From an uncultured Gemmatimonadales bacterium (GTDB lineage: Bacteria; Gemmatimonadota; Gemmatimonadetes; Palauibacterales; Palauibacteraceae): a stretch of DNA of 64,000 nucleotides. Shown one piece after another: positions 15,736 through 31,608 of this stretch. Both the position numbers and the translations under genes were made by a program. Below the pieces are notes generated by a model that was not told the origin of the DNA, did not search any database, and worked only from the letters and a program-made list of their open reading frames with translations. Where the stretch lies: assembly GCA_963783385.1 (NCBI GenBank), contig CAWANJ010000002.1, positions 348,739-412,738 of the forward strand. Reading direction: 5' to 3'. How positions within the stretch are numbered: the stretch's first letter is position 1; each line of letters opens with the position of its first letter.

Positions 15736-15750
15736 GATTTTCTGAGCGCC

Positions 15751-17053
15751 TCATTGTGGCCAGGAACAAGTCGTCCAACTGGAATCGGTAGGGGTGTAAA
15801 CATAGAGCGAACCGGAGATGATTATGTGGGTCGTGTGCCGAGCCTTTGTCGTGAATGTATCTCGAAGGCTTGGAGCGCCGCCGCCCCAATGCGTATGAAA
15901 GTCTCCAGAGGCGCCTGCGTAGAAGGGCACGTGCACAGTGTCTCCTCCTGGTATCCCAGAAACGGTTACGTGCAATGGATCGCTCCACGGAGCCCCGTAC
16001 CAGCCGCCGAATTCCTGCCTGTTTAGCCACGACCGCCTGTAGAGCTTACCTGCCTGCTCGAGGAAGCTCGCGTTGAATTGACAATTGAACGTGTCGGCCC
16101 GAGCAGCCGCGGCTGCTCCACCCCCCGGAGGTCCAAACGCGGCAAAGCCGGAATTGGGGCCCGCACCGTCACCGACTCCCCCGAGGCCGGTCGCTGACGA
16201 GCCGCCATAGCCACCGACGGCCCCCGCACCGCCGCCACCGCCCTGGACGAGGACCTTGAGCTCCGTCGCCTCATCGCACCACGGATAGGGGGTCCAGGTG
16301 AAGTGGCAGTCGAGGTCAGAGGGATCCGTCCCGTTGACCGGACTGTTCCCCACGTAGGCGTACGGGTTGATCCCGGCCGCGAGCCCGAGCGGGTCCTCGC
16401 TGAGGAAGCGTCCGAGCTCGGGGTCGTAGGAGCGGGCCCCCATGGCGTAGAGACCCTCGTGCCAGTCGAGCATCTGGCCGGCGTAGCGCAGCCAGTTGGA
16501 CACCGTGGTCGAGCCGTGCTGGGCGTTCCCCCAGGGGTCGTAGCGGTAGTCGTTGGCCACGCCCGAGGCGCCGAACAGCCCGAGGACGGAGCCGAGGTCG
16601 TCGGTGGCCAGGTAGTGGGTCTGGGCGTCGCTGCGGACGCTGTGGGGCCGGGAGCCGCCGTCCCAGAGGTAGTGCAGCACGTAGCCGGTCTTGCCGCGCT
16701 CGACGCGGCGGCCGAAGCCGTCGTACTCGTAGCGCCACACGGTATCGCCGTCGGCGAGGCTGTCGAGCCGGCCGCTGGGGCTCCAGTAGAAGCTCTCGTC
16801 GACCCCGTTTCCGGACTTGGAGGTGAGCCGGCCGGCGGCGTCCCACGTGAGGCTGTAGCCGGCGAAGGAGCTCGGCCGATCGGCCGTGTCGATGACGGCG
16901 CCGTGGTCGGTGCGGTTTCCCACGGCATCGTAGGCGTAGAGCGCCGAGTCGGCGACGGGGTAACCCGAATTGAAGGTGCAGTTGTTCACTTCGATCGAGC
17001 CGGGTGTGCAGGTGACGCCCGCGTTGGCCACGCGGTCCACGTACCCGGTGAGC
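15751..17053 (-). pseudogene. orphan Rhs cassette J: core fragment plus JAB/MPN-like toxin tip
   Basis: Core ends PVNGTDPSD; 22-aa in-frame core deletion; tip has EFGGWY...HTHWGGGAPSLRD. Confidence 0.85.
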
Positions 17054-17336
17054 TCCTCAGCCGCTGGCCGAGTTTTCGCGACCTCCGGCCCGGTAAGGAG
17101 CCGTCAGGCAACCCGCGCTCGCCAGCCCAAGGGCGAGAGAGTGGATGTCTCCAGACTGCGTACAGCCGGGTGTCTCTTTACACAAATGGTCGTCCCGGTC
17201 CCGTGGACGAATGGAGCCACATCCGCTCCTGCTGAATTATGGAGGACGTGTCTCGGACCGCGGCCATGCGCAGCAAAGAAGGCGAAATTTCAGTGGCCGA
17301 CCGGCTTCGGCGCCTCGGGCGTGAACGCTAGTCTCG

Positions 17337-17903
17337 TCAGGATTCCGGCAGGCGCCAAGCACAGAAGTACCCGGCTGGAACAGGTCTAACATTGGTGCCC
17401 GCAGACCATGTACCAGTGAACCCAGTTCGGTCACCGTTTTGCACGTCCAGATCCACTCCCTGATCGACGGCCATAGCATTGAGACGGGCCCCTCCAACCA
17501 CGATAAAGAACCGTCCGCGATCCTTGAAGACCAGCACGCCAGGATGCTCTGGGTCCTTCGACGAGGGTTCTGGTGATCCAATTGGAACGTTCCCGAGCCG
17601 CGTTAGTGGTGCCTCCATCCAGCCGGCGGCCGCCCAGCCAAATCTCCTTGCTCGCGCACTGACCTCAAGTGTAAGCCGGCCCTGCACGATCGTATCTCGA
17701 CGGGCTCCTTGCGTCACATGCAACTCGATAACAAAAACACCCACGAGATTGGCAAATTCGGCATCCGGAGTTGATGTTGTGTCGGGCGGCTGGCACTTAC
17801 TCTGTGTCATGTCCCGGTTCGAATGTGCCATGTCACATTGGCCGCCCACAATAATGAGGCAGCTTAGCATCAGAACCATTAGGTGAGTAGCTAGCAATTT
17901 CAT
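17337..17903 (-). CDS. putative exported immunity protein for cassette I
   Basis: Signal-peptide-like MKLLATHLMVLMLSCLIIVGG; paralog of the 15096 gene; directly downstream of the tip. Confidence 0.7.
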   Translation of the reverse strand: MKLLATHLMVLMLSCLIIVGGQCDMAHSNRDMTQSKCQPPDTTSTPDAEFANLVGVFVIELHVTQGARRDTIVQGRLTLEVSARARRFGWAAAGWMEAPLTRLGNVPIGSPEPSSKDPEHPGVLVFKDRGRFFIVVGGARLNAMAVDQGVDLDVQNGDRTGFTGTWSAGTNVRPVPAGYFCAWRLPES

Positions 17904-18940
17904 CGTGCACCTTGGACGGCCCAATTACTCTGTGCAAGCCGTGGACACGACCGCGTGGTTCGAGTCAGTGCGGCCATCCACAAGCTGTGGTGGACATGTC
18001 ACCAGGGGTGACCACATAAATGGTGTCGTTGGGCCCGAATATGGCCATTGTAGTTTGATATCTACGCACCCATACGATATCCGCCCCGCTAGGTCCAGGG
18101 TTTCCCCCGAGCCACCGCGGTACAATATGCGCGTGCCAGTTGCCGGAGCTTCCAGGATGAGGCAAGAGGTAGCCGCTCGTCATTGACGGATCTTGGATTG
18201 TATTTCGCAGTGGTCTGTCCCATGGGGGGCCATACCAGCCTCCGCGTTCAGTCGATGCAGCGTTCGAGTTGTTCCACTCCTCGTTTCCTTGTCGCAGGAA
18301 ACCAGGACTGAAGCTGCAGTCAAACGTGTCAGCAGCAGCGGTCGCCGCGAACCCTCCGCCGCCCGGAAGTCCAAAGGCGGCAAAGCCGGAATTGGGGCCC
18401 GCACCGTCACCGGCTCCCCCGAGGCCGGTCGCTGACGAGCCGCCATAGCCACCCACGGGACCCGCGCCGCCGCCACCGCCCTGGACGAGGACCTTGAGCT
18501 CCGTCGCCTCATCGCACCACGGATAGGGGGTCCAGGTAAAGTAACAGTCCAGGCCAGAGGGATCCGTCCCGTTGACCGGACTGTCCCCCACGTAGGCGTA
18601 GGGGTTGATCCCGGCCGCGAGCCCGAGCGGGTCCTCGCTGAGGAAGCGTCCGAGCTCGGGGTCGTAGGAGCGGGCGCCCATGGCGTAGAGGCCCTCGTGC
18701 CAGTCGAGCATCTGGCCGGCCCAGCGCAGCCAGTTGGACACGGTGGTCGAGCCGTGCTGGGCGCTCCCCCAGGGGTCGTAGCGGTAGTCGTTGGCCACGC
18801 CCGAGGCGCCGAACAGCCCGAGGACGGAGCCGAGTGTCAATGGACGCCAAGTCTCACGATGTTAGCGGACGCACAGATTTACGACCCTGCTCCTGCTGGT
18901 GATCGTTCACCTCCGGGTTCGGGTGTGCCGGGACGGGTGC

Positions 18941-19723
18941 TCATTTCAGGAGCCGCTCGAGGTCACGGAGCCGGTAGCTCCTTCCCTTGATGTTGAGGAC
19001 GTGGCAGTGGTGAAGCAGGCGGTCGAGGAGGGCGGTGGCCATGACCTCGTCGCCGGCCAGCACCTCGGGCCAGTCCTTGACGGCCTTGTTGGTGGTGATG
19101 AGGATCGAGCCCTTCTGGTAGCGGTAACTGACGAGGCGGAAGAGGAGGCTGGCCTCGAGCCGGGTCATGGGCTGGAAGCCGACCTCGTCGATGATCAAGA
19201 GCGCGACGTTCATGTACTTCTTGGCGCGCAGCCGTCGGGGCGGCACGTCGGCGTCCTTCTTCAGGCTGTGGAGGAGGTCCTCGAGCCGGAAGAAGGCGAC
19301 CGAGAAGCCGCTCTCGACCGCCTTGACGCCCAGGGCGACCCCGAGGTGAGTCTTGCCGACGCCAGGCGGGCCCTGGATGAGGAGCGTCTCTCGCTCGCGG
19401 ATCCAGGCGCCGGTGGCCAGCGTCTCGATGCGGCTGCGCTCGAGGGAGGGCTGGAAGGCCCAGTCGAAGTCGGCCAGCGTGTAGCCGGTCGGGAGCCCCG
19501 AGAGGCGGAGCGAGGTCTTGATGCGCCGTTCCTCGCGCTGGCGGATCTCGGCCTCCAGGAGCCGGTCCAGGAAGCGGTGGGGCGGCACGTTCGACTTGAC
19601 TGCTTCGGAGAGGAGCTCGCCCAGCCGCTCGGCCGCATGCGTGAAACCGAGCTGGACGAGAGCCTCCTGCGTCCGGTCGACGTCCAGCCGCCCCTTGCGG
19701 GCCGACGTCTGCGGGGCGCTCAC
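18941..19723 (-). CDS. istB: IS21 helper ATPase IstB
   Basis: GPPGVGKTHL, LLIIDEVGF, ITTNK and ALLDRLLHH. Confidence 0.95.
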   Translation of the reverse strand: MSAPQTSARKGRLDVDRTQEALVQLGFTHAAERLGELLSEAVKSNVPPHRFLDRLLEAEIRQREERRIKTSLRLSGLPTGYTLADFDWAFQPSLERSRIETLATGAWIRERETLLIQGPPGVGKTHLGVALGVKAVESGFSVAFFRLEDLLHSLKKDADVPPRRLRAKKYMNVALLIIDEVGFQPMTRLEASLLFRLVSYRYQKGSILITTNKAVKDWPEVLAGDEVMATALLDRLLHHCHVLNIKGRSYRLRDLERLLK

Positions 19724-20991
19724 CGGGCCACCTCCGCCAGCGCGGCATACAGATCCACGGGCCGGGCCTCGACGGGCAGGAGGTAGATCTCCTGGAGCTT
19801 CCGGCCCATGCGGCCCAGCGGCGGCGGCGGGAGGACGCGGCCTGTGGCCTCGCCCTCGAAGCAGTCCGGGTCCATGAGGAGCCGCTCGGGCGTGTGCCGC
19901 GGGTAGGCCTTGACCACCCGGCCCTCGGCCCAGATCTGGACGACCCCGGCGCAGCCGCGCACCTCGACCGCCTGGCCGGCCAGGGCGAAGGGAACCGCGT
20001 ACTGACGGCCCTCGAAGGCCACCAGGCAGTCCCGGTCCACCCACCGGGTGACCGCCACGTCGAAGGGCTCGGGCAGGATCGGGAGCGGCCGGAGCCGCTC
20101 GAGCTCCCGGCGCCAGCTCTCGTGGACCGTGGCTCCGGTGGCCGGGCACACCGCCGTGCGCGCCCACCGGTCGATCCTCTCGTCCGTCCAGGCCTGCAGC
20201 TCGTCGAGGCCGCCGAAGCGGCGGCCCGCCGGATCCAGCCGCCTCCGCCCCAGCCTCACCTTGGCCTCCGCCTTCCCCTTGGCCTGCGGCTCCCGCGGCC
20301 CGCACGCGTCGATGTGGAAGCCGACCGTCTGCGCGTAGGCCCGGTAGGTGGGATGGATCGTCCCCCAGGCCCCCGCGCCGCGGCTCAGCGCCGTCTTCAC
20401 GTTGTCGATGCGGTTCACCGCCGCCACGCCCTCCAGGCGCCGGTAGGCCTCGTTGTGGCAGGAGAGCCAGGAGACCTGGTCCTCCCGCCGGCTCCACACC
20501 GCCGCCGGACGGCGGCTGTGCGAGAGCGTCATCCAGAACAGGTGCAGGGGCTCGGGCCCCTCGCCCACGTCCACCCGCGCGATACTCCGCCCAGTCCGTC
20601 TGCGTCTGCGCCCCCGGAGGCGTCTCCACCCGCCGGTAGGTCCTGAGCTTCGGCCGGGATACCGCGCCCTGGCACGTACCGCAGCACCGAGCGGTAGGAG
20701 CCCCGGTAGCCGTACTCCGCCGCCAGGTGCTCCCAGAGCTCCTGGACGTTCACCGGCCGCTGTCTGCTCCTCCCGGTCGGCGAACCAGTGCTCGATCACC
20801 CCGGCCAGCCGCTCGGCCCTGTAGGGCCGCTTCGAGCGACCGTCCTCGGCTCCCTCGGCCTGCCGCCTCAGGTGGTAGCGCACCGTGCCCTCGGTCACCC
20901 CCAGGGTACGCGCGATCTCGCAGTGGTTCTGCCTCTTCTCGGCCAGCACCCCGATCGTCACGGTCTCCTCCCTGCGAAGTCTCCTGGCCAT
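19720..20991 (-). CDS. istA: IS21 transposase IstA (several compensating frameshifts around 20580-20760)
   Basis: N-terminal HTH; ETPPGAQTQTDW in an alternate frame; LSHSR, IDNVKTA and PQAKGKAE. Confidence 0.9.
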   Translation of the reverse strand: MARRLRREETVTIGVLAEKRQNHCEIARTLGVTEGTVRYHLRRQAEGAEDGRSKRPYRAERLAGVIEHWFADREEQTAAGERPGALGAPGGGVRLPGLLPLGAAVRARARYPGRSSGPTGGWRRLRGRRRRRTGRSIARVDVGEGPEPLHLFWMTLSHSRRPAAVWSRREDQVSWLSCHNEAYRRLEGVAAVNRIDNVKTALSRGAGAWGTIHPTYRAYAQTVGFHIDACGPREPQAKGKAEAKVRLGRRRLDPAGRRFGGLDELQAWTDERIDRWARTAVCPATGATVHESWRRELERLRPLPILPEPFDVAVTRWVDRDCLVAFEGRQYAVPFALAGQAVEVRGCAGVVQIWAEGRVVKAYPRHTPERLLMDPDCFEGEATGRVLPPPPLGRMGRKLQEIYLLPVEARPVDLYAALAEVAR

Positions 20992-21260
20992 CGGGGGCAC
21001 CCTCCTTCGAGCTCGAGGTTCGAAGGTCTCGGTACCCCCGCCACTCCGCAGGGTCGTAAATCTGTGCGTCCGCTAAGGAGAAAAAGAACCCGTCCCGGCA
21101 CACCGAGGTCGTCGGTGGCCAGGTAGTAGGTCTCCTCGTCGGCGCGCAGGCTGTGGGGCAGGGCGCCGCCGGGGAAGTAGGCGTAGGTGGCCTTGAGCGC
21201 GGTGGCCCCGGCGTAGACGGCGAACAGGGAGCTTCCGCGCCATTGACAGTACTGTGCTGT

Positions 21261-21515
21261 TCAGGGGTACCGGAGCCCTATAAGCGCCGCCGAAGAAGGA
21301 GAATGAGCCGACCAGCCCAGAGCATTCCCAGCGCTGTCGAGATCAGAATGCCAGACGCCAAACGAGTGCGATATCGCCCCGTCAAGGCCGAAGGCCAGAA
21401 AGCCGACCGCGCTCACTGATGCGCGCAGCAGGGGAGTCATGGGGCGGTTGAGCTTCCTCCAGGTTCGCTCGAGCCGAGAAATCCTCTGGTCCTCGGAATT
21501 CACTGGTAGAATCAA
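21261..21515 (-). CDS. putative small membrane immunity protein for cassette H
   Basis: Start overlaps the tip stop codon; hydrophobic segment ASVSAVGFLAFGL. Confidence 0.5.
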   Translation of the reverse strand: MILPVNSEDQRISRLERTWRKLNRPMTPLLRASVSAVGFLAFGLDGAISHSFGVWHSDLDSAGNALGWSAHSPSSAALIGLRYP

Positions 21516-22405
21516 TGGTTTAGAGAACAGAATGCCGCCGTAAAGCCAAGGTGGCCAGCTAGCATACCAAGATCGATTGCTAGTCCGACATCACTGGCCT
21601 TCATCAAAGTGGCGCGCACAATCCGAGTCGAGTTCATGAAATGACCGGCCTCCCATGCCGCTGAGAGCGGCATGTCAAGGCCGGGCATACGCAGCGCTCT
21701 TGGAAGGGCAACCACTCCAAGTAGGCTTCCACTGATATAGCTACCTACCGTCGCATCGAAGGAAAGAGCCGCCGCTTCGCCTATGTCGTTTATGCCCTCC
21801 TCGAAGAGCTGTCTTCCCCTGCGGTAGCAGTCGCCGAAGGATGGATCCGACCTTGACAAACCGCGATCTCCGACGCCGGTGGCGGCGGGCAGCTGTGCCC
21901 CAGCGAGACTGCTGCTGTGCAGCGCGCTCCCGGAAGGCCGCGACGTCCCGTTCGCGAGGGCCGCGGTGAGCACGGTCAATAAGTTGCCGAAGGACCAGCC
22001 GCCGCCGCTCCCCTCCACTGCGACAAAGAGACCCGATGACCAGCATGGGTCGTCCCACGTGCCGCACTCGAGATCGGTGCCCATTGGATCGACGAAGTTG
22101 ACCGGGCTGTTCCCCACGTAGGCGTAGGGGTTGATGCCGGCCGCGAGCCCGAGCGGATCCTCGCTGAGGAAGCGTCCGAGCTCGGGGTCGTAGGAGCGGG
22201 CGCCCATGGCGTAGAGGCCCTCGTGCCAGTCGAGCATCTGGCCGGCCCAGCGCAGCCCGTTGGACACGGTGGTCGAGCCGTGCTGGGCGCTCCCCCAGGG
22301 GTCGTAGCGGTAGTCGTTGACCACGCCCGAGGCGCCGAACAGCCCGAGGACGGAGCCGAGGTCGTCGGTGGCCAGGTAGTAGGTCTCCTCGTCGCTGCGG
22401 AGGCT
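21512..22405 (-). pseudogene. orphan Rhs cassette H: short core plus hydrophobic toxin tip
   Basis: Core from SLRSDEETYY to PVNFVDPMG, then a unique tip. Confidence 0.85.
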
Positions 22406-22431
22406 CGTGAACTTCTCTTCCGTACATAAGG

Positions 22432-22635
22432 TCACGACTTGAAGCGCCGCCGAGCCGACTTCTCTCGCTCGGTTCGAGACCAGGAACTCGAACCACCAAC
22501 GATACCGAAGAGGACGGATAGAGACACGAGGCCTACGGTATCTCCCGTACTCCACTGCCTTGAGCCCAGATGCGCCAAGAACATCGTTCCAAACACAGGC
22601 ACGGCGACAAGAATCTCGGTGCATGCTGCGCCCAC
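22432..22635 (-). CDS. possible small 2-TM protein or extra immunity remnant
   Basis: 67-aa ORF with two hydrophobic stretches, located between immunity G and cassette H. Confidence 0.3.
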   Translation of the reverse strand: MGAACTEILVAVPVFGTMFLAHLGSRQWSTGDTVGLVSLSVLFGIVGGSSSWSRTEREKSARRRFKS

Positions 22636-22643
22636 TGGCGCTG

Positions 22644-23168
22644 CTACGTCCGGGGCGTGTCCGCGCCCCGAAGGGAAGCCGCGCGTCCGCGGTCATCCAG
22701 GGTATGGATGGGTGCTTCGGGTGCCGAGTGCAACGACCGTCGGTGCTCGATTGTGAGGCGCACAGCAATGAGCCCGAGCGTCACAATTATCAGCGCCCCA
22801 AGGCTGAGATCGTACGTGGCCATGACAAATGAGTATGCGGGCACAACGGTATACAGGAGAAGAATGTGGAGCGGGATTCCCCCGGTCCCGCCTTTCAGGC
22901 TCAATGTAGCGAGCATGGCGACCGGTCCGGCGAGATAGATCCCGACCAGCATCCAGACGCTCTGTCGGAATTTGTGATTCCAGAACCAGTCTCCAGCAAG
23001 GTAAGCTAAGCCGGAGGAAGCGGGGAGGAGCAAGGTGACCAGCCACAAAGGCTCAGTCGTTCGGAAGATGACCGAAATGAGCAAGTCGGGCAGCCAAAAC
23101 CCGGCTGCGCCGAGCGCCACGGCAGCCAGAACCCGATAGTACCGCCTCATTTTGTGACTCTTAGGCAT
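22644..23168 (-). CDS. putative polytopic membrane immunity protein for cassette G
   Basis: ATG 4 nt after the tip stop; about 5 hydrophobic segments. Confidence 0.7.
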   Translation of the reverse strand: MPKSHKMRRYYRVLAAVALGAAGFWLPDLLISVIFRTTEPLWLVTLLLPASSGLAYLAGDWFWNHKFRQSVWMLVGIYLAGPVAMLATLSLKGGTGGIPLHILLLYTVVPAYSFVMATYDLSLGALIIVTLGLIAVRLTIEHRRSLHSAPEAPIHTLDDRGRAASLRGADTPRT

Positions 23169-23172
23169 GCAC

Positions 23173-24351
23173 TCATCCCTCCACCCAGCAGTAAACATGC
23201 TCTCCGATGCCGTACCGCGCGTCGAACCAACTGACCGACTGCGCCGCTCCACGGAGCACGGGGTTGGCAGAAGCTACATCAGTTAACACCGGAACGTACT
23301 TCCCATTCGAGTAGAACTGGAGGAGGCAACCCCGAATCGAATTCAACCTGGGCGTATCCTCTATGTGTTTGCAGATCCAGCCGAGATCCGCTCTGCCGGT
23401 GGAGTCATAGATTCTGCATGCGCCCGGCGGCTTTGAGGGCCACCAGTGCTCGGTGCGTCCCGTGTCAGCCCGAGCAGCCGCACTGGCTCCTCCGCCCGGA
23501 GTCCCGAACGCAGCGAAAGCGGAATTGGGGCCCGCACCGTCACTGTCGCCCCCGAGGCCGGTCGCTGACGAGCCGCCATAGCCACCGACGGCCCCCGCAC
23601 CGCCGCCACCGCCCTGGACGAGGACCTTGAGCTCCGTCGCCTCATCGCACCACGGATAGGGGGTCCAGGTGAAGTAGCAGTCGAGGCCAGAGGGATCCGT
23701 CCCGTTCGTCGGACTGTTCCCCACATAGGCATACGGATTGATCCCCGCCGAGAGCCCGAGCGGGTCCTCGCTGAGGAAGCGTCCGAGCTCGGGGTCGTAG
23801 GAGCGGGCGCCCATGGCGTAGAGGCCCTCGTGCCAGTCGAGCATCGAGCCGGCCCAGCGCAGCCAGTTGGACACGGTGGTCGAGCCGTGCTGGGCGTTCC
23901 CCCAGGGGTCGTAGCGGTAGTCGTTGGCCACGCCCGAGGCGCCGAACAGCCCGAGGACGGAGCCGAGGTCGTCGGTGGCCAGGTAGTAGGTCTCCGCGTC
24001 GGCGCGCAGGCTGTGGGGCAGGGCGCCGCCGGGGAAGTAGGCGTAGGTGGCCTTGAGCGCGGTGGCCCCGGCGTAGACGGCGAACAGGGAGCTTCCGTCC
24101 CACAGGAAGTGGAGGACGTAGCCGGTCTTGCCGCGCTCGACGCGGCGGCCGAAGCCGTCGTACTCGTAGCGCCACACGGTGTCGCCGTCGGCGATACTGT
24201 CGAGCCGGCCCGTGGGGCTCCAGTAGAAGCTCTCGTCGACCCCGCTTCCGGACTTGGAGGTGAGCCGGCCGGCGGCGTCCCAGGTGAGGCTGTAGCCGGC
24301 GAAGGAGCTCGGCCGGTCGGCCGTGTCGATCACGGCGCCGTGGTCGGTGCG
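23173..24351 (-). pseudogene. orphan Rhs cassette G: core fragment plus Cys-rich toxin tip
   Basis: Core from RTDHGAVIDT to PTNGTDPSG; tip has IRGCLL...EHVYCW. Confidence 0.85.
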
Positions 24352-24354
24352 GCG

Positions 24355-24619
24355 CGAGTTCGTCGAGGGGGAGACTCCGATCGCGGTCCTAAACGCGGGC
24401 GGGGAGGCGGCCCGCAAGCGGGAGGAGCGCCTGGCCTGCCTCCGCGCCGCGACGGCGCCGAGGTGAAGCCTACTGGGCCGCCTCGGCGAGCTGGCCTGAG
24501 CCGACGGGACCCTCGTGCCCCCCATGCTGGACACCGTGCGCGCCTTCGCCACCCTGGGTGAGATTCGCGCCACGCTGCAGGCGGTGTACGCCAGCTTCCC
24601 GGAGCCGCTGACCTTCTGA
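24355..24619 (+). pseudogene. degenerate direct repeat of the mutase 3' end (14779-15052)
   Basis: Colinear match, e.g. CCCCCCATGCTGGAC, GCCACCCTGGG, GCCACGCTG.AGGCGGTGTACG and the final TTCTGA, with indels. Confidence 0.9.
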
Positions 24620-24714
24620 ACTCTCCGGCTTGAGGCTCTGTCTCTGGTCCATTGCGTGACAGGTACCTGGGTAACGGAAGCGGCGCTTCAGGCGGCATTG
24701 GAAGACAACGCCGC

Positions 24715-25218
24715 TCACTCCTGCCCGGAGCGCTCAGACGAGTTGCCGTTTGCTTCTCGGTCCTCCCGTACGAGCCCGCGGTGACGCTTCCACCCGTACC
24801 TGAACGCCAGGCCATAGAAGGCACCGACCATTGCCCAGGCACCGAGAATGACCGCTGCGTGTGGGCGCAACCACCAGGAACCAAACCAGCTTATAGAAGT
24901 TAGCGCGAATACGAGGACAGTAGCCACGGAGCCGACTAGAGCCGACCCAAGCCACGACGCAGTCGCGATGGGCCGTAACAGTCCCACGCACATGCCGGCA
25001 GTCACGCCACCGAGCAGGTAGAACCCGAGCACCCATCCCCAAGAGATGCGTCGTAGGCCTCCGAGTTGCTGCACCTCGGTCGTCAGTTCCGCCAACGGAT
25101 CAGCTCCGATGGCCTTGCCCACGGCTACGACCAGACTCGCGATCGTTCCTAGGACAACCGCCCATACTATGCCCCACTTCAGGCCCCAGCGGAGGTCCTC
25201 TGTCCAGGACCTAGCCAT
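24715..25218 (-). CDS. putative 4-TM immunity protein for cassette E
   Basis: Four hydrophobic helices; directly downstream of the tip. Confidence 0.7.
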   Translation of the reverse strand: MARSWTEDLRWGLKWGIVWAVVLGTIASLVVAVGKAIGADPLAELTTEVQQLGGLRRISWGWVLGFYLLGGVTAGMCVGLLRPIATASWLGSALVGSVATVLVFALTSISWFGSWWLRPHAAVILGAWAMVGAFYGLAFRYGWKRHRGLVREDREANGNSSERSGQE

Positions 25219-25275
25219 TATCCTCGACCGTCCCGTCCCAAAGTGCACGAGAAGGATGAGCTTCGGCTTTCGCCA

Positions 25276-25857
25276 CTAGCCGCCCGTGCACGCTTGAAAT
25301 GCGTCCCAGATCCTTGCGACGGTTCCAACGACCGGTAGAAGGCGAAGGAGCGTGCCTCCCGTTCCGTGGCCGCTCGTCACCGTAAGCCCAGTCTTCGCTG
25401 ACGCCACTTCGGCGATTGCGGGGTCAGCCGTCACTAACCTGACACCAGTACTGACTGCTGAGGAAATGGTAGTCTGCAGGCCAGCCGCTTTGATCAAGGC
25501 AGCCGGAGGAGCTACCGCATCGGCCACGGACCAGCCCCGCGCCAGATTGGTGGTCACATCGCCGACGAATGCCGTACCTACTTCACCTCCCAAGGCGGCA
25601 CCACGGAGTGCAATGCCCGTTCCTGCACTCGCGATCACCAGCCCATCCAAAGCAGCCGACAACAGAGCGTCTCCAATGGCATGACCGCAATTGGTGCTAG
25701 CCGCGCGGAACGCACCGGCTGTAGATAGCGCAGCGTCCCCACCGACGCCTCCGGCAGCAGCGGCACCCTGCAGAGCCCCGAGGAACCAATCGGACCCCCG
25801 CGTGCCGACGGAGCCCATGAAGTTGCGACCGCCATACGACGAGCCCGACGCGACGTC
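25276..25857 (-). pseudogene. core-less toxin tip E (Gly/Ala-rich hydrophobic), truncated by the IS21 fragment
   Basis: Open frame up to the IS end; same Cys...Cys-C-terminus layout as the other tips; followed by a TM gene. Confidence 0.7.
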
Positions 25858-26254
25858 TGTCAATGGACGCCAAGTCTCACGATGTTAGCGGACGCCTACT
25901 TTTACGACCCTGCTCCTGCTCCTGATGGTTCACCTCCGGGTTCGGGTGTGCCGGGACGGGCCCTCATTTCATGAGCCGCTCGAGGTCCCGGAGCCGGTAG
26001 CTCCTGCCCTTGATGTTGAGGACGTGGCAGTGGTGGAGCAGCCGGTCGAGGAGGGCGGTGGCCATGACCTCGTCGCCGGCCAGGACCTCGGGCCAGTCCT
26101 TGACGGCCTTGTTGGTGGTGATGAGGATCGAGCCTTTCTGGTAGCGGTAGCTCACGAGGCGAAAGAGGAGACTGGCCTCGAGCCGGGTGAGCGGCTGGAA
26201 GCCGACCTCGTCGATGATCAGCAGGGCCACGTTCATGTACTTCTTGGCGCGCAG
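25858..26254 (-). mobile_element. IS21-family fragment (istB 3' part plus right end), diverged iso-copy
   Basis: Starts TGTCAATGGACGCCAAGTCTCACGATGTTAGCGGACGC, as at 18835; istB C-terminus at 25964-26254 with scattered substitutions. Confidence 0.92.
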
Positions 26255-26860
26255 GCTGGCCTGGCAAGATCGCGAGGCGGTCAATCACCGCGCCATCTCA
26301 CTGTGAGACCCAGCGGCCGGCTCCATCGCAAGAAGGCGTCGACACAGAGACGCGTTAGAGCCAAGGGGCCCGATGCGACAGCCCACGAACAGCGCTCTTC
26401 TGCCTTCATGTGCACGAAGGAACCACCGATCATCTTGAAGAAGTCCAAGTCTAGTGCATTGACAGCGGAGTCCACTTGTGCCGGCCGACACACGCATCCC
26501 GCCCGGCCATAAAGACCGTCTTTGCCGAGAGCGCAATCCGGGCCCAAACCAACGGAGTCGCCTCCTTTCGGTCCTATCGCACATTCGGGTCAAAGACCCG
26601 ACGGACTCCCTACTTTCGCAGACTGACCACTCGCAACGTCGCAACTCCCCAGACAACAGGCTATCATAGGGAATCAACTCCGCGACATACCCCCAGGGCT
26701 TCGCGATTGGCACGCCTCGTCCCCCAGCTGAATCCCCTTGGCTGCACGCACGGCGCTGACGAGCCTGCTGACCGCACGCAACGCCCTTCTATCGTGTGAC
26801 ATACATGGGTGCGCCCCCAGACGGCTCCCTGCCGTTGTCCATAGGGAATGCTCGCTCGGC

Positions 26861-27358
26861 CTATCCAATTCCCACAAAGACGCCGACAATCATGACACCC
26901 ATTGCGAGGCCGATTAGCAGTCGAGAGACGACCTGGAACTTCCTGCCCTCGGGGGCGAAAGCCGATAGCGGTGCGAAGAGAGTCCGTGTCCGAAACCTGT
27001 GCCTCGTTTCAGCGTCAGGAATATAGCGAAGACCGAAATGTGCAAGAACACTTCCAGCCAAGCCAAGTATGCCTGCCACTCCGATAATAGGCCACAGCCG
27101 TGGTGGGAGGCTGCTCGTCGCTCCCGCGAGGAAGTGCGCATACAATATGAGTAGAGCCACGCCTAGGAACGCAAATGCAAGAGTCTTATAGAGCAGGCCA
27201 GTTGGCTGATACTGCGACAACGGTGCCCAAAAGCCCTTCCTTCGAAGCGATTCTCGCCCGTCGCCGTCCCTCGCATGGTAACTCGCCAGCCAATTGGCCA
27301 CGTTGGCGGCGATCACAGCGGCGATTATGCCTATAGTGGGCCAGTCCAAGCTCTCCAT
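26861..27358 (-). CDS. putative 4-TM immunity protein for cassette B, internally duplicated
   Basis: TM-loop-TM unit occurs twice (WAPLSQYQPTG / FAPLSAFAPEG). Confidence 0.72.
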   Translation of the reverse strand: MESLDWPTIGIIAAVIAANVANWLASYHARDGDGRESLRRKGFWAPLSQYQPTGLLYKTLAFAFLGVALLILYAHFLAGATSSLPPRLWPIIGVAGILGLAGSVLAHFGLRYIPDAETRHRFRTRTLFAPLSAFAPEGRKFQVVSRLLIGLAMGVMIVGVFVGIG

Positions 27359-27380
27359 CCGTCTCTCCCGTGCTTCGCAG

Positions 27381-28343
27381 CTAGAAGGCGAAACACCCGG
27401 TGTGTCCGCCGAACGACGTCATGTTCACGAAGAGACCCGCTCCACCTCCTGCGTTGAAACCAGTGCCGGAGAACTTGTGGTTGAGGAAGACGGCATTGGC
27501 CCCAAAGTCGCCGTAGCTTCCTTCCAGTTCGATGCTGCCGCCGCCACCGGCCTTGAAGCTCAATGCCACCAAGTCGTCAACGCCACCTGTCTGCACCGAC
27601 ACTTCGGCTCCACCCTCCGCTCCATAGCCGAAGGATGGGCCACCATGCCAATACAGAGCATATGTATGAGAATGTGTGTTGTCCGAGCCAATAGCCAGCC
27701 CGCCTTCTAGGTTTCCACCAAAGCCCTGAGCGTAGATAGTGCCCGCGCCGACACTGTATGTGCCATTGAGAGAGATGGACTCCGTTACGCCTGTGGCGCA
27801 GGTGGTCCGATGCGGAAGGTGTTTCTTGATGAAGGCTGCCGCCTTCACAGCGAAGCCACCGAAATCACCTTGGCTGAGCATGCCTGCCGTCACCGCCAGG
27901 GAATTCCACATGCTGCCAAGGGAGATGCTCTCTGCAAGGGCAAAGGCATAGGCGGCTCCGCCCCACCGAGACTCGACCGGGACGTGGAGTCCTTGCACTC
28001 GATGGACCGGGCAGTCCCATGCGCCCGCGGTGCAGGTGGGCTCGAGCCCACTCGGATCGGTCCCATTGACCGGACTGTCCCCCACGTAGGCGTACGGATT
28101 GATCCCCGCCGAGAGCCCGAGCGGGTCCTCGCTGATGAAGCGCCCCAGCCCGGGATCGTAGTACCGGGCCCGCACGTAGGAGAGGCCGGTATGCTTGTTC
28201 CACGCGAGGCCGGCGTAGCGCAGCGGGTTGGTCACCGAGCCCGTGGCCACCTGCGGCTCGCCCCACGGATCGTAGCGGTCCTGGTTCTGGACGCCCGAGC
28301 CGTCGAACAGGCCCTCGACCGAGCCGAGGTCGTCGGTGGCGTA
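27381..28343 (-). pseudogene. orphan Rhs cassette B: divergent core end plus Gly-rich beta-type toxin tip
   Basis: YATDDLGS...ARYYDPGLGRFISEDP...PVNGTDPSG; the core differs from the other copies. Confidence 0.85.
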
Positions 28344-28577
28344 GCTCAGCTGGACTTCCCTCGCGTCCCGACCGACGCTAGCGTTCAGATCGAGAACTCC
28401 AGTCGAATGCCGCAGAGGTGCGGTCGCCAACCCGAGACCCACGCCACCTCCGAAGACCTAAGCCACCGCGTCAGCGATGACCTCCAGACGGCGTGAGGGT
28501 GGCCTCGCGTCGCCGTGCGACAATCGGCCCGAACGTGGCGCAATCCAGCTCACTATGTCCGGAGCGGGTGGAAATCC

Positions 28578-29165
28578 CTACAGGGCCTCCCCGTGCGAAT
28601 CGGATTCCCACCTGACAGGAATGTGGCGAGCTATAGCTTCAAGAGCTTTCCTGTCCAGCTTGCTGGCAATGCTGTTGATGGACAAGAAGCCAGCTCTTTC
28701 AAGCAGCATACGCCCTCCCGCAGGCTCGAAGCGAAGCACGACCCACCGCAGAATCATGTAGCGCTCCTGAACGCATACACTTCGGTACCGCTCCCAGGGA
28801 AGGAAGAGGCCACCTCCCACAATACCATACTGACCAATACGGTATGACAGCAGTTCCCACCTGCGGATGCCGTGAATCATGAACCAAGTCGAAGCCACGA
28901 GGGCGAGCAACAGGCCGTACTCTGATAGTGCATGCGTCCATCCGCCTCGACCATTGAGAGCCTGACGCAGCAGATTCACTCCTACCAAGGCTAAGAGGAT
29001 CAGCGACGCGGACTCGCACAGCACGAGCAGCGCATTCCATATCCCCCGGAGTCGAACGGTAACCTCCACCTCGCCAACTCGGCCTTCAGCACTGGAAAGC
29101 CTTGCGGCCAATACGAATGCTGCCGGAGAGATGGCCAATAGCCACATGATAATGTCCGAAAGCAT
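28578..29165 (-). CDS. putative membrane immunity protein for Rhs A
   Basis: Downstream of Rhs A; three TM segments followed by a soluble tail. Confidence 0.7.
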   Translation of the reverse strand: MLSDIIMWLLAISPAAFVLAARLSSAEGRVGEVEVTVRLRGIWNALLVLCESASLILLALVGVNLLRQALNGRGGWTHALSEYGLLLALVASTWFMIHGIRRWELLSYRIGQYGIVGGGLFLPWERYRSVCVQERYMILRWVVLRFEPAGGRMLLERAGFLSINSIASKLDRKALEAIARHIPVRWESDSHGEAL

Positions 29166-29219
29166 GATCTTACCAGGTTTGAGTTTCCGAACAGCCGAAG
29201 GCGGGCATGAATGTCGGCT

Positions 29220-31520
29220 TCACTGAAGACAGGCCGCAGTCGGATTGGGAGTTCCAGTGAGTTCATTAGAGACATAGGCCGTGGTAGCGGCCTCGCCGAG
29301 CGCACTTAGGAGCATCACACGCGGTTCATAAATATAGGATATGCCACTGAAGACCAAGCCGACGAATGCACCTACCTTCGCTCTCTTCTTCCGAGAGGGC
29401 GAAACGTCCGCGGCGTCTATGTCCCGCCACGTGGCTCGAGCAGCTTGAACATCAAAGAACAGATTTAGCACGGTGCCCGGCCCAGGAAAGGCTTGGAAAG
29501 GTGCGAGATCGAGGACCTCGTAGAGGGCCCGACCGCAAGGATCGTCTAGGGCATCTGCCGGCTTGCTCACGCCTGCGCGGCCTCCGCTTCCACCCACTGT
29601 CGCTGCGGGGTCGGGGCCAAATCCTATTGGCTGCTGCCTTCCCCGATGTCCGAAGTTCTTAGTAAAACCAGACGTGCGGGGCGTATCAAACGGCCACGCT
29701 CCACTCGTGCCGCTGGACTCGACCCACACCCACGCGATTCCGCCGTGGTCGCACACCAAGTGGAGCCCGTCGTCCATTTGGATCAGGATGCAATTTACCG
29801 GATCCATCCCCGACGGATCGGTCCCGTTCACCGGGCTGTTCCCCACGTAGGCGTAGGGGTTGATGCCGGCCGCGAGCCCGAGCGGATCCTCGCTGATGAA
29901 GCGTCCGAGCTCGGGGTCGTAGGAGCGGGCGCCCATGGCGTAGAGGCCCTCGTGCCAGTCGAGCATCGAGCCGGCCCAGCGCAGCCAGTTGGACACGGTG
30001 GTCGAGCCGTGCTGGGCGTTCCCCCAGGGGTCGTAGCGGTAGTCGTTGGCCACGCCCGAGGCGCCGAACAGCCCGAGGACGGAGCCGAGGTCGTCGGTGG
30101 CCAGGTAGTAGGTCTCCGCGTCGGCGCGCAGGCTGTGGGGCGGGGCGCCGCCGGGGAAGTAGGCGTAGGTGGCCTTGAGCGCGGTGGCCCCGGCGTAGAC
30201 GGCGAACAGGGAGCTTCCGTCCCACAGGAAGTGGAGGACGTAGCCGGTCTTGCCGCGCTCGACGCGGCGGCCGAAGCCGTCGTACTCGTAGCGCCACACG
30301 GTGTCGCCGTCGGCGATACTGTCGAGGCGGCCCGTGGGGCTCCAGTAGAAGCTCTCGTCGACCCCGTTCCCGGACTTGGAGGTGAGCCGGCCGGCGGCGT
30401 CCCAGGTGAGGCTGTAGCCGGCGAAGGAGCTCGGCCGGTCGGCCGTGTCGATCACGGCGCCGTGGTCGGTGCGATTCCCCACCGCGTCGTAGGCGTAGAG
30501 CGCCGAGTCGGCGACCGTGTAGCCCGAGTTGAAGCTGCAGTCGTTGGGATCGATCGAGCCCGGCGTGCAGGTCACCCCCGCGTTGGCCACGCGGTCCACG
30601 TAGCTGGTGAGCCGGCTCTCACTGTCGTACGTATAGGCCCGGCTCGTGTCCTCGCTCGCCCCCCGGTAGACCGCGGTCCGCCGGCCGAGCGAGTCCTCGC
30701 TGAACGCCTGCCCGAACTTCGCCTCGAGGACGGAGCTGCTCCACGAGAGGGACCCCGTCCGGTGGGAGGAGGCCACGCCGCGCCACAGCGTGTCGCCGGT
30801 CGGGTAGATCACTTTCGTGGTCTGGCGGTCCGCGTCGTAGGCGAAGGTCGTCGCCTGCCCCCCGGCGTCGATGAGGGAGTCCAGCCGGCCCTGGTCGTCG
30901 TACCGGTAGCCCACCGAATCGGTCCACGGGGTCGTCGCGGCGATCTCGGCCCGGCGGCCCTCCCCGTCGTACCGGCTGTGCAGGACGTAGCGGGTAGAGC
31001 CCCGGCGGGTGATCTGGTCCACCACGCGGCCCGCGGCGTCGTAGGTCACCGTGTCCGTGCTCGCGGCGTTGGAGGCGGCGACGAACAGGCCGTCGGGATC
31101 CGTCGTGAACGTGGTGGTGTCGCCCCCCTCGGCGCGCCACGCCAGTTGGCCCAGGGCGTCGTAGCCGAAGCCCACGGTCTGACCGACCCGGTTCGTCCAG
31201 CTCGTGATCCGTCCGTTCGCATCGTAGGCGTACGCGTCGGCGTGGCCGGCGGGATCGGTGCGCCCGGTGATCCAGCCCAGGGCGTTCCGGTCGAACGAAT
31301 AGGTCTGTCCGAGGGCGTCGGTCACTCCCGTGACGTAGAGCGAGTCGTACGACAGGCGCGTGGTGTCCCCCAGGGGGCCGACCGTGAGGGTCACCCGGTT
31401 CAGCGTGTCGTAGGCCGTGGTGGCGGTGTGACCGTCGGCGTCGGTGACCTGGACGGTCCGGCCGTGATCGTCGTAGGCGTAGCGCGTGGTCCTCGCCTCG
31501 CTCGACAGCGTCGAGTCCAC
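29220..31520 (-). CDS. Rhs/YD-repeat protein A with C-terminal toxin tip (short; no N-terminal delivery domain seen)
   Basis: Many YD repeats, ARSYDPELGRFISEDP, PVNGTDPSG and a variable tip. Confidence 0.92.
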   Translation of the reverse strand: MDSTLSSEARTTRYAYDDHGRTVQVTDADGHTATTAYDTLNRVTLTVGPLGDTTRLSYDSLYVTGVTDALGQTYSFDRNALGWITGRTDPAGHADAYAYDANGRITSWTNRVGQTVGFGYDALGQLAWRAEGGDTTTFTTDPDGLFVAASNAASTDTVTYDAAGRVVDQITRRGSTRYVLHSRYDGEGRRAEIAATTPWTDSVGYRYDDQGRLDSLIDAGGQATTFAYDADRQTTKVIYPTGDTLWRGVASSHRTGSLSWSSSVLEAKFGQAFSEDSLGRRTAVYRGASEDTSRAYTYDSESRLTSYVDRVANAGVTCTPGSIDPNDCSFNSGYTVADSALYAYDAVGNRTDHGAVIDTADRPSSFAGYSLTWDAAGRLTSKSGNGVDESFYWSPTGRLDSIADGDTVWRYEYDGFGRRVERGKTGYVLHFLWDGSSLFAVYAGATALKATYAYFPGGAPPHSLRADAETYYLATDDLGSVLGLFGASGVANDYRYDPWGNAQHGSTTVSNWLRWAGSMLDWHEGLYAMGARSYDPELGRFISEDPLGLAAGINPYAYVGNSPVNGTDPSGMDPVNCILIQMDDGLHLVCDHGGIAWVWVESSGTSGAWPFDTPRTSGFTKNFGHRGRQQPIGFGPDPAATVGGSGGRAGVSKPADALDDPCGRALYEVLDLAPFQAFPGPGTVLNLFFDVQAARATWRDIDAADVSPSRKKRAKVGAFVGLVFSGISYIYEPRVMLLSALGEAATTAYVSNELTGTPNPTAACLQ

Positions 31521-31608
31521 GCCCGTCTCACGACGGGCGCGTCGTTTCGAATCGCGCCTCTACTTGGAGCCGGCCGACGATCGGCTCGAGACTCATACCG
31601 ATACGATA

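Follow-up and report, generated by a model that had tools for sequence, protein, structure and literature searches.

Polymorphic toxins of the Rhs/YD-repeat type, together with their orphan tip-immunity cassettes, have been catalogued (Zhang et al. 2012, PMC3482391). In bacterial teneurin-like proteins (BiTLP), many members carry Sec-type signal peptides, and a small C-terminal domain is cleaved but retained within the YD shell; that domain damages membranes and is toxic only if sent to the periplasm (PMC13018210). Tse1 of Pseudomonas aeruginosa is an antibacterial toxin that acts in the periplasm, and one disulfide, C7-C148, joins its two ends (PMC12302283). CdiA-CT combines an N-terminal entry domain containing a predicted Cys pair with a separable toxin, and membrane ionophores are common among these toxins (PMC11630599).

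The window analyzed here, meaning the whole 64,000-nucleotide stretch from an uncultured Gemmatimonadales bacterium, contains an Rhs array. Like the catalogued Rhs toxins, the array has YD repeats and a conserved core end that terminates in DPxG, after which come a hypervariable tip (about 170 to 240 residues) and an immunity gene; orphan core-end/tip/immunity cassettes, interspersed with IS elements, lie farther downstream in both (PMC3482391). Unlike those toxins, tips of the window type obey a four-Cys rule with a fixed hairpin-linker-toxin plan, and the fronts of intact relatives are Sec-like rather than PAAR or VgrG linked. The features of the array are as follows.

31522 to 31531, no strand: junction of a deletion of about 2.46 kb (blastn, window 31200-31900 against L010)
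29220 to 31520, minus strand: main rhs gene, N-terminally truncated (766 aa), with YD-repeat core and tip A at 29223-29807 (Pfam RHS_repeat, E 9.7e-36; Cys map)
28578 to 29165, minus strand: putative tip A immunity gene for a membrane protein, directly downstream of tip A (two hydrophobic segments, Kyte-Doolittle)
27381 to 28442, minus strand: orphan cassette B, core end and tip B at 27384-28046 (tblastn to A core, 63% over 116 aa; Cys map)
26861 to 27358, minus strand: putative tip B immunity gene (four hydrophobic segments)
25964 to 26284, minus strand: IS21 istB fragment beside the truncated E cassette (Pfam IstB_IS21, E 4.2e-34, profile positions 138-234 only)
25276 to 25863, minus strand: tip E, N-terminally truncated (97% identity to the full tip of L028 from alignment column 31; Cys map)
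24715 to 25248, minus strand: putative tip E immunity gene (four hydrophobic segments)
23173 to 24354, minus strand: orphan cassette G, core end and six-Cys tip G at 23176-23685 (tblastn to A core, 97% over 225 aa; Pfam RHS_repeat; Cys map)
22644 to 23168, minus strand: putative tip G immunity gene (four hydrophobic segments)
21512 to 22405, minus strand: orphan cassette H, core end and tip H at 21515-22078 (tblastn to A core, 88% over 115 aa; Cys map)
21102 to 21242, minus strand: 47-residue Rhs core fragment beside the IS21 copy (tblastn, 94% to A residues 433-479)
18941 to 21000, minus strand: IS21-family element between cassettes H and I (istA 19720-21000, istB within 18941-19750)
17965 to 18840, minus strand: orphan cassette I, core end and tip I at 17968-18552, predicted JAB/MPN-like fold (tblastn; Cys map; alignment; AF2/structure match)
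17337 to 17924, minus strand: putative tip I immunity gene (one N-terminal hydrophobic segment; aligned with the tip J immunity gene)
15751 to 17079, minus strand: orphan cassette J, core end and tip J at 15754-16314, predicted JAB/MPN-like fold (tblastn; alignment; AF2; VIA-align)
15096 to 15745, minus strand: putative tip J immunity gene (alignment with its G003 counterpart, a lipoprotein)

Truncation of the main rhs gene was apparent from the syntenic gene of G003. The sequences flanking the deletion match L010 at 12999-13331 and 15795-16173 with a 10-base overlap in the window. The deleted segment comprised the upstream region, the signal-peptide-like part and about 750 codons from the beginning of rhs. 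Tip E is without its core end and Cys hairpin but retains the opening and closing Cys; that it is truncated, as an earlier sequence-only reading of this DNA had stated, was borne out by the full-length E tips of L028 and L030, which open with a 23-residue Cys-closed hairpin absent from the window copy. The E immunity protein follows the E tip in L028 as well. Downstream of tip H, no intact immunity gene was found. The tip J immunity gene carries an extra G near 15660 that shifts its ATG start and signal peptide out of the reading frame. The start of the tip G immunity gene was taken as the ATG just past the G stop codon, chosen by reading the translation. Pfam matched the IS21 element to rve and Mu-transpos_C_2 (istA) and to IstB_IS21 (istB, E 2.3e-71) and matched no family to the putative immunity proteins of tips A and B. 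We conclude that the locus is a decayed array, with IS21 sequences, a frameshift and a main gene that lacks its front half. With the signal peptide and about half of the shell missing from the main rhs gene, the array cannot deliver as it stands and can now serve at most as a reservoir of cassettes and immunity genes. The inability to deliver had been overlooked in the sequence-only reading.

To describe the tips, Cys residues were numbered from the first residue after DPxG. Cys are found at 6, 19, 91 and 193 of the 195 residues of tip A; at 5, 12, 83 and 218 of 221 in tip B; at 59 and 192 of 195 in truncated tip E; at 3, 13, 90, 105, 120 and 166 of 170 in tip G; at 5, 12, 84 and 184 of 188 in tip H; at 3, 13, 79 and 191 of 195 in tip I; and at 3, 13, 78 and 183 of 187 in tip J. 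Thus, the last Cys lies 2 to 4 residues before the C terminus in all seven minus-strand tips (15751-29810). The map reproduced what the sequence-only reading had reported: a Cys-Cys loop after DPxG in every intact tip (A, B, G, H, I and J), then a Gly-rich linker, a Cys opening the toxin domain and a near-terminal Cys, with even Cys counts throughout (4, 4, 2, 6, 4, 4 and 4) and a further core pair, VTC...DC/NC. The core pair was located at residues 318 and 328 of A and at 11 and 21 of orphan J. The same reading had called the seven tips mostly unrelated. The Cys pattern held in all seven, but they are not seven independent cases: the first ~75 residues, comprising loop and linker, are common to tips G, I and J, and the toxin domains of I and J are homologous (41% identity), which leaves six toxins and four N-terminal loops that are independent. 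Given each tip's own composition, the chance of a Cys within the last five positions was 0.05 to 0.17 per tip, for a joint value of 7.6e-7 over the six unrelated toxins. We conclude that the Cys observation is confirmed, and it is wider than first described.

Among close metagenome and genome relatives, a Cys lies no more than 9 residues from the end in 13 of 16 toxin families, and nearly all have four Cys in the same order. In a wider set, 134 tips on related Rhs cores from metagenomes and MAGs were grouped into 108 BLAST clusters, which may still share folds although BLAST-unrelated; both loop and terminal Cys occurred in 57, the loop without the terminal Cys in 14, the terminal Cys without the loop in 10, and neither feature in 27. 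By comparison, 106 of 112 control tips from Pseudomonas Rhs proteins were without any Cys. A positional rule common to unrelated toxins, one part of the earlier interpretation, gains independent support from these data; the four-Cys layout is absent from the Pseudomonas control. The share of tips with the pattern dropped with core similarity, from 27/35 to 11/32 to 9/28, and the recurrence could thus partly reflect shared descent of the N-terminal module. Cys counts were even in 84 of the 96 tips bearing either feature and odd in 12; the odd counts, like the five Cys in the J tip of G003 itself, speak against strict pairing within tips. In the strict four-Cys tips (n = 46), the linker spans 16 to 106 residues (median, 63) and the closing Cys is followed by 0 to 13 residues (median, 4).

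Conservation within families was consistent with the rule. Both bracket Cys of the J family are invariant down to 38% identity; in the E family, the opening Cys is invariant down to 37% identity and the closing Cys is found in 4 of 4 sequences, one alignment column off in L029. Tip B has a homologue in L031 and L034. The bracket also surrounds recognizable domains in relatives, namely, an M23 peptidase (1391-1496) between Cys 1360 and 1500 and an Ntox44 domain (1401-1492) between Cys 1369 and 1495. No bracketing terminal Cys was found in the nuclease tips Tox-REase-7, which has no Cys near its end, and HNH, in which the final Cys belong to CxxC pairs. Some tips carry the bracket only (P0014, T20_L036, P0069 and P0124) and others the loop only (P0007, P0013, P0077 and P0088), and one toxin family may occur with and without the loop (P0002/P0014, P0001/T20_L036 and J/P0124). 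The two modules thus travel separately, which argues for Cys pairing inside each. No published description of the Cys-bracketed tip rule was found in the literature; the word "disulfide" is absent from 300,000 of the 357,715 characters of PMC3482391, and the parts of the BiTLP account used here state no positional Cys rule across tips (PMC13018210).

Based on the even Cys counts, the separately travelling pairs and their conservation, we infer that the Cys pair into two disulfides. Every tip of this Rhs clade would open, after the DPxG self-cleavage site, with a short beta-hairpin closed by two Cys, continue through a flexible linker rich in Gly, Ser and Ala, and end in a toxin domain of about 100 to 135 residues that has a Cys among its first residues and another near its C terminus. 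Both pairs would be oxidized in the periplasm by a DsbA/VKOR system, with one disulfide stapling the hairpin and the other joining the head and tail of the toxin domain. Closure may serve stability, fast refolding after release, or protease resistance. A domain closed in this way would be hard to thread through a narrow pore and is thus a poor fit with unfolding-dependent import. The proposed bond resembles that of Tse1 in joining the two ends of a toxin, but Tse1 is a single amidase made in the cytoplasm and carried by T6SS/Hcp, and its bond is reported to be redox active rather than structural (PMC12302283). CdiA-CT likewise has an N-terminal Cys-pair accessory module ahead of a separable toxin domain, but CDI entry domains are helical bundles instead of a short beta-hairpin with a long Gly-rich linker, delivery is by two-partner secretion, and no head-to-tail toxin bracket is described in the portions of that account used here (PMC11630599).

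Secretion context was assessed with crude hydrophobicity scans, which underlie the signal-peptide and membrane-segment calls. Among complete relatives of the class, this crude test found Sec-like N termini in 25 of 35, against 1 of 107 controls. The G003 protein has a signal-like segment, for which the assembly offers no in-frame start codon. Proteins whose tips have neither Cys feature often look Sec exported too (13 of 20), and thus export alone does not explain the Cys rule. The source genome, which is 92% complete, yielded no TssC, PAAR or Hcp; it encodes six DsbA-family matches, one VKOR, Omp85 and secretins. The earlier suggestion that the toxins are exported and are not T6SS cargo therefore gains support, and the data support a prediction that intact relatives are Sec exported rather than T6SS delivered. 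Like BiTLP, the relatives combine Sec-type signals with a YD shell, a cleaved domain and a Cys near the domain end; unlike BiTLP, in which a single Cys bonds to the plug (PMC13018210), the window tips probably pair their Cys within the tip, and NHL or FN-plug domains were not detected, Pfam giving only RHS_repeat on the G003 protein.

The immunity proteins provide an indication of where the toxins act. The window has six clear examples, four polytopic and two lipoprotein-like, and at least two hydrophobic segments were found in the downstream open reading frame at 9 of 19 related loci versus 0 of 14 proteobacterial loci. Because polytopic membrane immunity proteins occur with them, toxins A, B, E and H may act on the membrane from the periplasmic side. 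Tip G, too, is paired with a membrane immunity protein. The model of tip E was of low confidence (pLDDT, 42.2). The I/J toxin was modeled by AF2 with a pLDDT of 79.3 and a pTM of 0.76, and its top structure matches were all JAB/MPN proteins, the best (VIA-align, 5ld9_A) having a Z score of 10.3 and an rmsd of 3.1 Å over 107 aligned residues. Like JAB/MPN (JAMM) proteins such as Pyrococcus furiosus JAMM1 (5ld9) and Cap3 (9ild), to which 107 of its 118 residues align, the I/J toxin keeps an invariant Glu, HxH and Asp in the expected order; unlike them, it is predicted to be exported, is flanked by two Cys and is paired with a lipoprotein. No sequence-level match to the I/J toxin was found in Pfam or NCBIfam. 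The tip I immunity protein has a lipoprotein-like N terminus and conserved Cys near both ends. We conclude that tips I and J are a predicted JAB/MPN-fold metallopeptidase, which would act from the periplasmic side and be neutralized by a lipoprotein. Envelope action, also proposed earlier, is strengthened by the membrane and lipoprotein immunity proteins, the I/J fold with its lipoprotein partner, and the bracketed M23 peptidase of a relative.

The terminal Cys could instead act as a redox tether, held in a mixed disulfide with the shell, plug or carrier until the opening Cys attacks, frees the cleaved toxin and leaves an intramolecular disulfide that is a switch and not a structural staple. 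Such bonds have precedent, as C2216 of the BiTLP C-terminal domain is disulfide linked to plug residue C719 (PMC13018210) and the two Cys of the reportedly redox-active Tse1 bond, C7 and C148, oppositely affect loading and release (PMC12302283), and terminal positions that are independent of fold suit a delivery role over a fold-specific one. We consider a tether unlikely, as shell and N-terminal Cys are paired locally with no obvious spare, the predominantly even counts within tips (84/96) suit closed internal pairs, and the pattern is retained in orphan cassettes despite different cores. Slightly less probable still is oxidation in the victim, whereby a reduced, unfolded tip is threaded into the target periplasm and the target's DsbA closes the pairs, folding and trapping the toxin. 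Some incoming periplasm-acting T6SS effectors do need target-cell DsbA for toxicity (PMC5792426). With Cys at both extremes, closure would have to wait until the entire domain had arrived. The disordered threading segments of colicins resemble the long Gly-rich linker of the tips. The producer's periplasm is itself oxidizing, with DsbA and VKOR present, however, and a reduced tip would need shielding in an exported protein otherwise rich in local Cys pairs, which lie 4 to 15 residues apart in the N-terminal regions and shells of relatives.

Two readings without disulfides are far less probable. Four Cys could bind a metal ion at a Zn(Cys)4-type site and so link the hairpin with the two ends of the toxin domain, and exactly four Cys in 46 tips, with an even count by construction, would fit; a metal site is nevertheless highly improbable, as bracket-only (10 clusters) and loop-only (14 clusters) tips are common, members of one toxin family may have or lack the loop, and the two pairs are kept apart by a flexible linker (median, 63 residues). 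Exported proteins rarely keep Cys4 sites in an oxidizing periplasm. Least probable of all is that the terminal Cys is a MYXO-CTERM-like sorting signal or a CaaX-like lipidation box, the latter being matched in its four-residue spacing by the window tails CFAF and CTGG. The Cys-to-end spacing varies from 0 to 13, no hydrophobic helix, basic cluster or shared motif follows the Cys, the terminal Cys co-occurs with a partner at the domain start, and no conserved processing enzyme was seen encoded at this locus.

The interpretation given by the sequence-only reading is, overall, partly supported. We favor, with a probability of about 0.6, the reading that the locus is a decayed Rhs array of a diderm soil bacterium, with Sec-exported kin and disulfide-closed tips that act on the periplasmic side. 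The recurrence of the same four Cys sites whatever the toxin, in this bacterium and in many relatives from soil bacteria, points to disulfide-locked, exported toxins that attack the cell envelope of rivals.

Seven Rhs toxin tips (A, B, E, G, H, I and J; a tip being the residues after the DPxG motif that ends the core) lie on the minus strand of the window, in an array flanked by methylmalonyl-CoA mutase genes. No further Rhs sequence was found in the rest of the assembly, designated G000 (3.54 Mb, 71% G+C, 9 contigs, 92% complete).

Features of the Rhs array and its flanks
13328-15052: methylmalonyl-CoA mutase gene, one array flank (Pfam)
minus strand: five orphan cassettes (B, G, H, I and J), in which a tip follows a piece of the core end
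18941-21000: IS21 element between H and I
19720-21000: IS21 istA (Pfam rve and Mu-transpos_C_2)
18941-20629: stretch giving the istB match of IS21 (IstB_IS21, E 2.3e-71)
minus strand: 47-residue scrap of Rhs core, within the array beside IS21
25964-26284: second istB fragment, adjoining E
minus strand: E, a tip-only remnant
29220-31520, minus strand: core gene with tip A
31970-32392: B12-binding partner of methylmalonyl-CoA mutase, other array flank (Pfam)

RHS_repeat (Pfam) was matched on A (E 9.7e-36), G (2.6e-5) and J (2.2e-6), and on five stretches of the full-length protein from G003, a genome of the same genus. Six core ends, aligned as A1, share 89% mean column identity and terminate in DPSG, DPMG or DPSD, immediately past which the tips diverge; self-cleavage at PxxxxDPxG is predicted. 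With YD repeats and a conserved core end before a variable tip, the array proteins appear by sequence to be Rhs/YD-repeat toxins. TEN_YD-shell (Pfam) scored 15.9 bits on G against a cut-off of 50, PF25023 is precomputed for most relatives among the matches listed, and Pfam gave no NHL or FN domain on the G003 protein. The nearest named Rhs relatives, among the matches listed (best 120 of 1059), come from MAGs of Gemmatimonadaceae and Longimicrobiaceae.

Comparison with G003 indicated that the array has decayed. At 31522-31531 the window lacks 2.46 kb, comprising the upstream region, a signal-like segment and approximately the first 750 codons of rhs, and the flanks of the deletion junction overlap by 10 bases. 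The N-terminal region that would direct export and plug the shell is thereby deleted from the window copy and retained in the syntenic G003 gene, and the array as assembled cannot export a toxin. Moreover, the putative J immunity gene has one G more than in G003, near 15660, which sets its ATG and signal peptide in a different frame from the mature lipoprotein part and is either a true frameshift or an assembly error. The element at 18941-21000 belongs to the IS21 family and has both the istA transposase and the istB ATPase, and the E cassette is cut beside the second istB fragment; the IS21 pair and the fragment against E suggest that the array took shape through IS-mediated rearrangements. 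The Rhs island also lies between the two mutase subunit genes in G003 (contig L010, 8621-10345 and 16023-16667), and thus the site was occupied before G000 and G003 split. Metagenome contigs have differing cassette orders and are likewise J-terminal.

The sequence-only reading had described one cysteine layout in seven mostly unrelated tips, and each element of that layout was recovered. Every intact tip has a cysteine pair directly after DPxG, with both residues inside the first 19 (the loop), and E has lost its pair. Another cysteine opens the toxin domain at residues 78-91 after DPxG (59 in truncated E) and the last cysteine lies 2-4 residues from the end in all seven tips; we refer to this opening and closing pair as the bracket. 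Cysteine counts are even throughout (4, 4, 2, 6, 4, 4 and 4), and the pair reported in the core was also found. The claim of unrelated tips held for six toxins, which we take as the independent sample because G, I and J have their loop and linker in common and the toxin domains of I and J are homologues (41% identity). Calculated from the composition of the individual tips, the probability that a cysteine falls among the last five residues is 0.05-0.17 per tip and 7.6e-7 jointly for the six. In full-length E tips, the first 23 residues form a segment that a cysteine closes at either end.

To survey relatives, the A1 core ends were used as a query over public genomes and metagenomes, which returned 14 and 33 loci, respectively. 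G003 was the sole close relative in the genome scan, and the 13 distant loci (12 from Proteobacteria and one from a Planctomycetota) served as a contrast set. The loci contained 50 complete tips, 42 of them distinct, in 27 toxin families. A cysteine lay at most 9 residues from the end in 13/16 families with close cores, nearly all of these with four cysteines in the same order, versus 3/11 families with distant, nearly all proteobacterial cores, most tips of which are cysteine-free. When the core-end sequence of the full-length syntenic gene in G003 was searched against proteins, it gave 1059 matches; the best 120, pooled with the locus tips, provided 134 tips (100-260 residues) that fell into 108 clusters unrelated by BLAST.

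Cysteine features in the 134-tip pool
loop and terminal cysteine: 57 clusters, 68 tips
loop only: 14 clusters, 15 tips
terminal cysteine only: 10 clusters, 13 tips
neither feature: 27 clusters, 38 tips

Comparison of related tips with control Rhs tips, the check proposed for the layout, came out in its favor: both features occurred together in over half of the related clusters, while of 112 usable Pseudomonas Rhs tips (8 clusters) 106 were cysteine-free, none had a loop and 2 had a terminal cysteine. In the pool, the cysteine count was even in 84/96 tips with a loop or terminal cysteine and exactly four in 46 tips. Among those 46, the loop had a median of 20 residues (6-36), the linker 63 (16-106; 22% Gly versus 14% in the toxin part), the bracket span 109.5 (23-147) and the tail 4. 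The share of relatives with both features fell with core similarity, from 27/35 to 11/32 to 9/28 (best 120 of 1059). Four of the 120 relatives were dropped for an unrecognizable core-end motif and a further 24 for the 100-260 residue range (21 for a range of 100-320), mostly long DUF6531-type proteins in which the motif was probably placed at the wrong site; of 120 controls, 3 lacked the motif and 5 were out of range. Several DUF6531-bearing relatives (P0021, P0030, P0036, P0037, P0040, P0045, P0089 and others) have 500-1000 residues past the core-end motif, with many evenly spaced cysteine pairs and cysteine-rich ends; either the motif is misplaced or the large cysteine-rich C-terminal regions are real.

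Loop and bracket behave as separate modules. Related tips include some with only the bracket (P0014, T20_L036, P0069 and P0124) and others with only the loop (P0007, P0013, P0077 and P0088), and a single toxin family can occur with and without the loop (P0002/P0014, P0001/T20_L036 and J/P0124). Conversely, one loop type is found on the differing toxins of G, I, J, T09 and T22, and two loop types are attached to the E toxin family. Both bracket cysteines are invariant in the J family down to 38% identity; in the E family (four sequences, 37% identity), the opening cysteine is invariant and the closing cysteine is present in all, one column off in the member from locus L029. Because loop and bracket occur apart and the cysteines are conserved in the J and E families, each module bears its own pair, and we infer that the loop cysteines pair with each other and the bracket cysteines likewise. 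In relatives, M23 peptidase and Ntox44 domains each sit between a cysteine approximately 31 residues before and another 3-4 residues after the domain. A Tox-REase-7 tip has no cysteine near its end, and the last cysteines of an HNH tip belong to its own CxxC pairs rather than to a bracket.

Other roles for the cysteines were considered. A Cys4 metal site was rejected, as loop-only and bracket-only tips exist and the same toxin family occurs with and without a loop. A cysteine-based C-terminal sorting signal found no support in the 0-13 residues (median 4) that follow the last cysteine, where a hydrophobic stretch is absent, and a MYXO-CTERM-like signal was rejected on the short tail without hydrophobic helix or basic tail. 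The first cysteine was rejected as an intein-type cleavage nucleophile, since it stands at no fixed distance from DPxG (2 to 9 or more residues).

The N termini of the relatives and the gene content of G000 argue for a route other than type VI secretion, as the sequence-only reading had proposed. By a crude hydrophobicity test among the best 120 of 1059 matches, Sec-like N termini were present in 25/35 complete relatives of the four-cysteine class versus 1/107 controls; the same test also found them in 13/20 relatives without the pattern. PAAR (PF05488), TssC (PF05943) and Hcp (PF05638) had no matches in G000, at 92% completeness, and the genome encodes six DsbA-family matches, one VKOR, Omp85 proteins and two secretins. 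Further local cysteine pairs occur in the N-terminal region and shell of relatives, as would be expected if these proteins fold outside the cytoplasm. At the syntenic site, G003 has a single Rhs gene, whose 1561-codon open frame carries a J-type tip, together with a gene for a lipoprotein. A signal-peptide-like segment stands at the head of that frame, which lacks an in-frame start codon (L010 15590-15700, minus strand). Directly upstream is a run of ten C, perhaps a homopolymer error of the assembly, and just past it an ATG in another frame.

Small ORFs downstream of 6/7 tips are putative immunity genes. Hydrophobic segments number 2-4 in four of the candidate products; the other two, encoded after I and J (17337-17924 and 15096-15659), are lipoprotein-like paralogues with 29% identity, each with a cysteine near the mature start (CGPPDT/CQPPDT) and another 6-7 residues from the end (YFCA). 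No intact immunity gene follows tip H: 21261-21515 holds an ORF of 84 codons in which no membrane segment is clear, followed by the 47-residue core scrap and IS21, and loss of the H immunity gene is possible. At related loci, the ORF 3' of the tip has at least two hydrophobic segments in 9/19 cases and a lipobox in 4 more, versus at least two hydrophobic segments in 0/14 at distant, mostly proteobacterial loci. These membrane and lipoprotein candidates, the bracketed M23 domain of a relative and a JAB/MPN-fold model of the J toxin support the earlier proposal of action on the envelope.

The J toxin model (AF2) had a pLDDT of 79.3 and a pTM of 0.76, with the other four models at 45.7-60.7. VIA-align placed 107 residues on 5ld9_A, Pyrococcus furiosus JAMM1 (Z 10.3, rmsd 3.1 Å), with MPN proteins in all of the top 25 rows, and the top Foldseek matches were JAB/MPN proteins only (best E 6.6e-3, probability 0.99). 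The model thus predicts an MPN fold of the JAB/MPN (JAMM) metallopeptidase type for the I and J toxins. E32, H71, H73 and D83 do not vary among four sequences; the Ser position of the E...HxH...S-x-x-D zinc-site motif does, and the spacing departs from the textbook JAMM motif. Pfam and NCBIfam assigned no family to the seven tips, nor did Pfam to the six tested immunity candidates; the J toxin returned chance-level rows in a search of PDB sequences (best E 0.37); and HMMER with the same toxin against 1.84 billion representatives gave five matches, of which P0124 and P0122 (the I cassette of the window itself) were usable and three repetitive proteins were left out. The best ESM Atlas score for the G toxin, 0.79, was under the lead level. 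The AF2 model of the full E tip was of low confidence (pLDDT 42.2), with a hairpin at residues 2-25 followed by helices, and the predicted complex of J toxin and putative immunity protein (score 0.02) was uninformative either way.

The most likely reading is Sec export, a disulfide-stapled tip and action from the periplasmic side. Intact members would be exported by Sec and fold in the oxidizing periplasm, where disulfides would staple the hairpin of each tip and, beyond a flexible linker, close its toxin domain head to tail, and the toxins would attack membrane or wall from the periplasmic side. A cysteine bond could instead hold the toxin and serve as the release step. Such a tether is described for a bacterial teneurin-like protein, BiTLP (PMC13018210), and a redox role is proposed for the Pseudomonas aeruginosa toxin Tse1 (PMC12302283); each concerns one protein, whereas the rule here extends across many tips and spans unrelated toxins, and we regard a release tether as unlikely. 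Slightly less probable again is closure of the disulfides by the DsbA of the victim, for which another study (PMC5792426) offers a precedent. The closest precedents are single proteins and not a rule across tips. Full-text literature searches found no account of this layout, and the word "disulfide" is absent from 300,000 of the 357,715 characters of a 2012 polymorphic toxin survey (PMC3482391). Supplementary data of the teneurin-like protein papers may hold tip alignments that bear on novelty.

Beyond Sec export of stapled, periplasm-acting tips, the four cysteines may constitute a redox-gated delivery code of a Sec-exported Rhs class in Gemmatimonadota, Acidobacteriota and neighbors, a proposal that we hold tentatively and rate as less likely than not. 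Any fold might then be plugged in, given a cysteine at each end and, ahead of it, a stapled hairpin and a disordered linker of colicin type, and redox events at the cysteines might gate both exit from the shell and fixation in the periplasm of a rival. The chemistry could be closure by DsbA of the victim or a tether to the shell that contact resolves. If true, this would be a thiol-gated Rhs toxin route between diderm bacteria that is independent of type VI secretion.

The two fixed cysteine pairs offer a concrete handle on how Sec-exported Rhs toxins leave the shell and reach rivals, one that can be mutated, trapped or reduced. As the rule spans dozens of toxins without detectable sequence similarity, it can aid annotation by marking the start and end of the toxin domain in tips without a family, and it predicts envelope action for tips that match none. 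It reveals a large pool of uncharacterized candidate envelope toxins and membrane immunity proteins in little-studied soil phyla, of which the predicted exported JAB/MPN-fold peptidase with its lipoprotein partner is one example.
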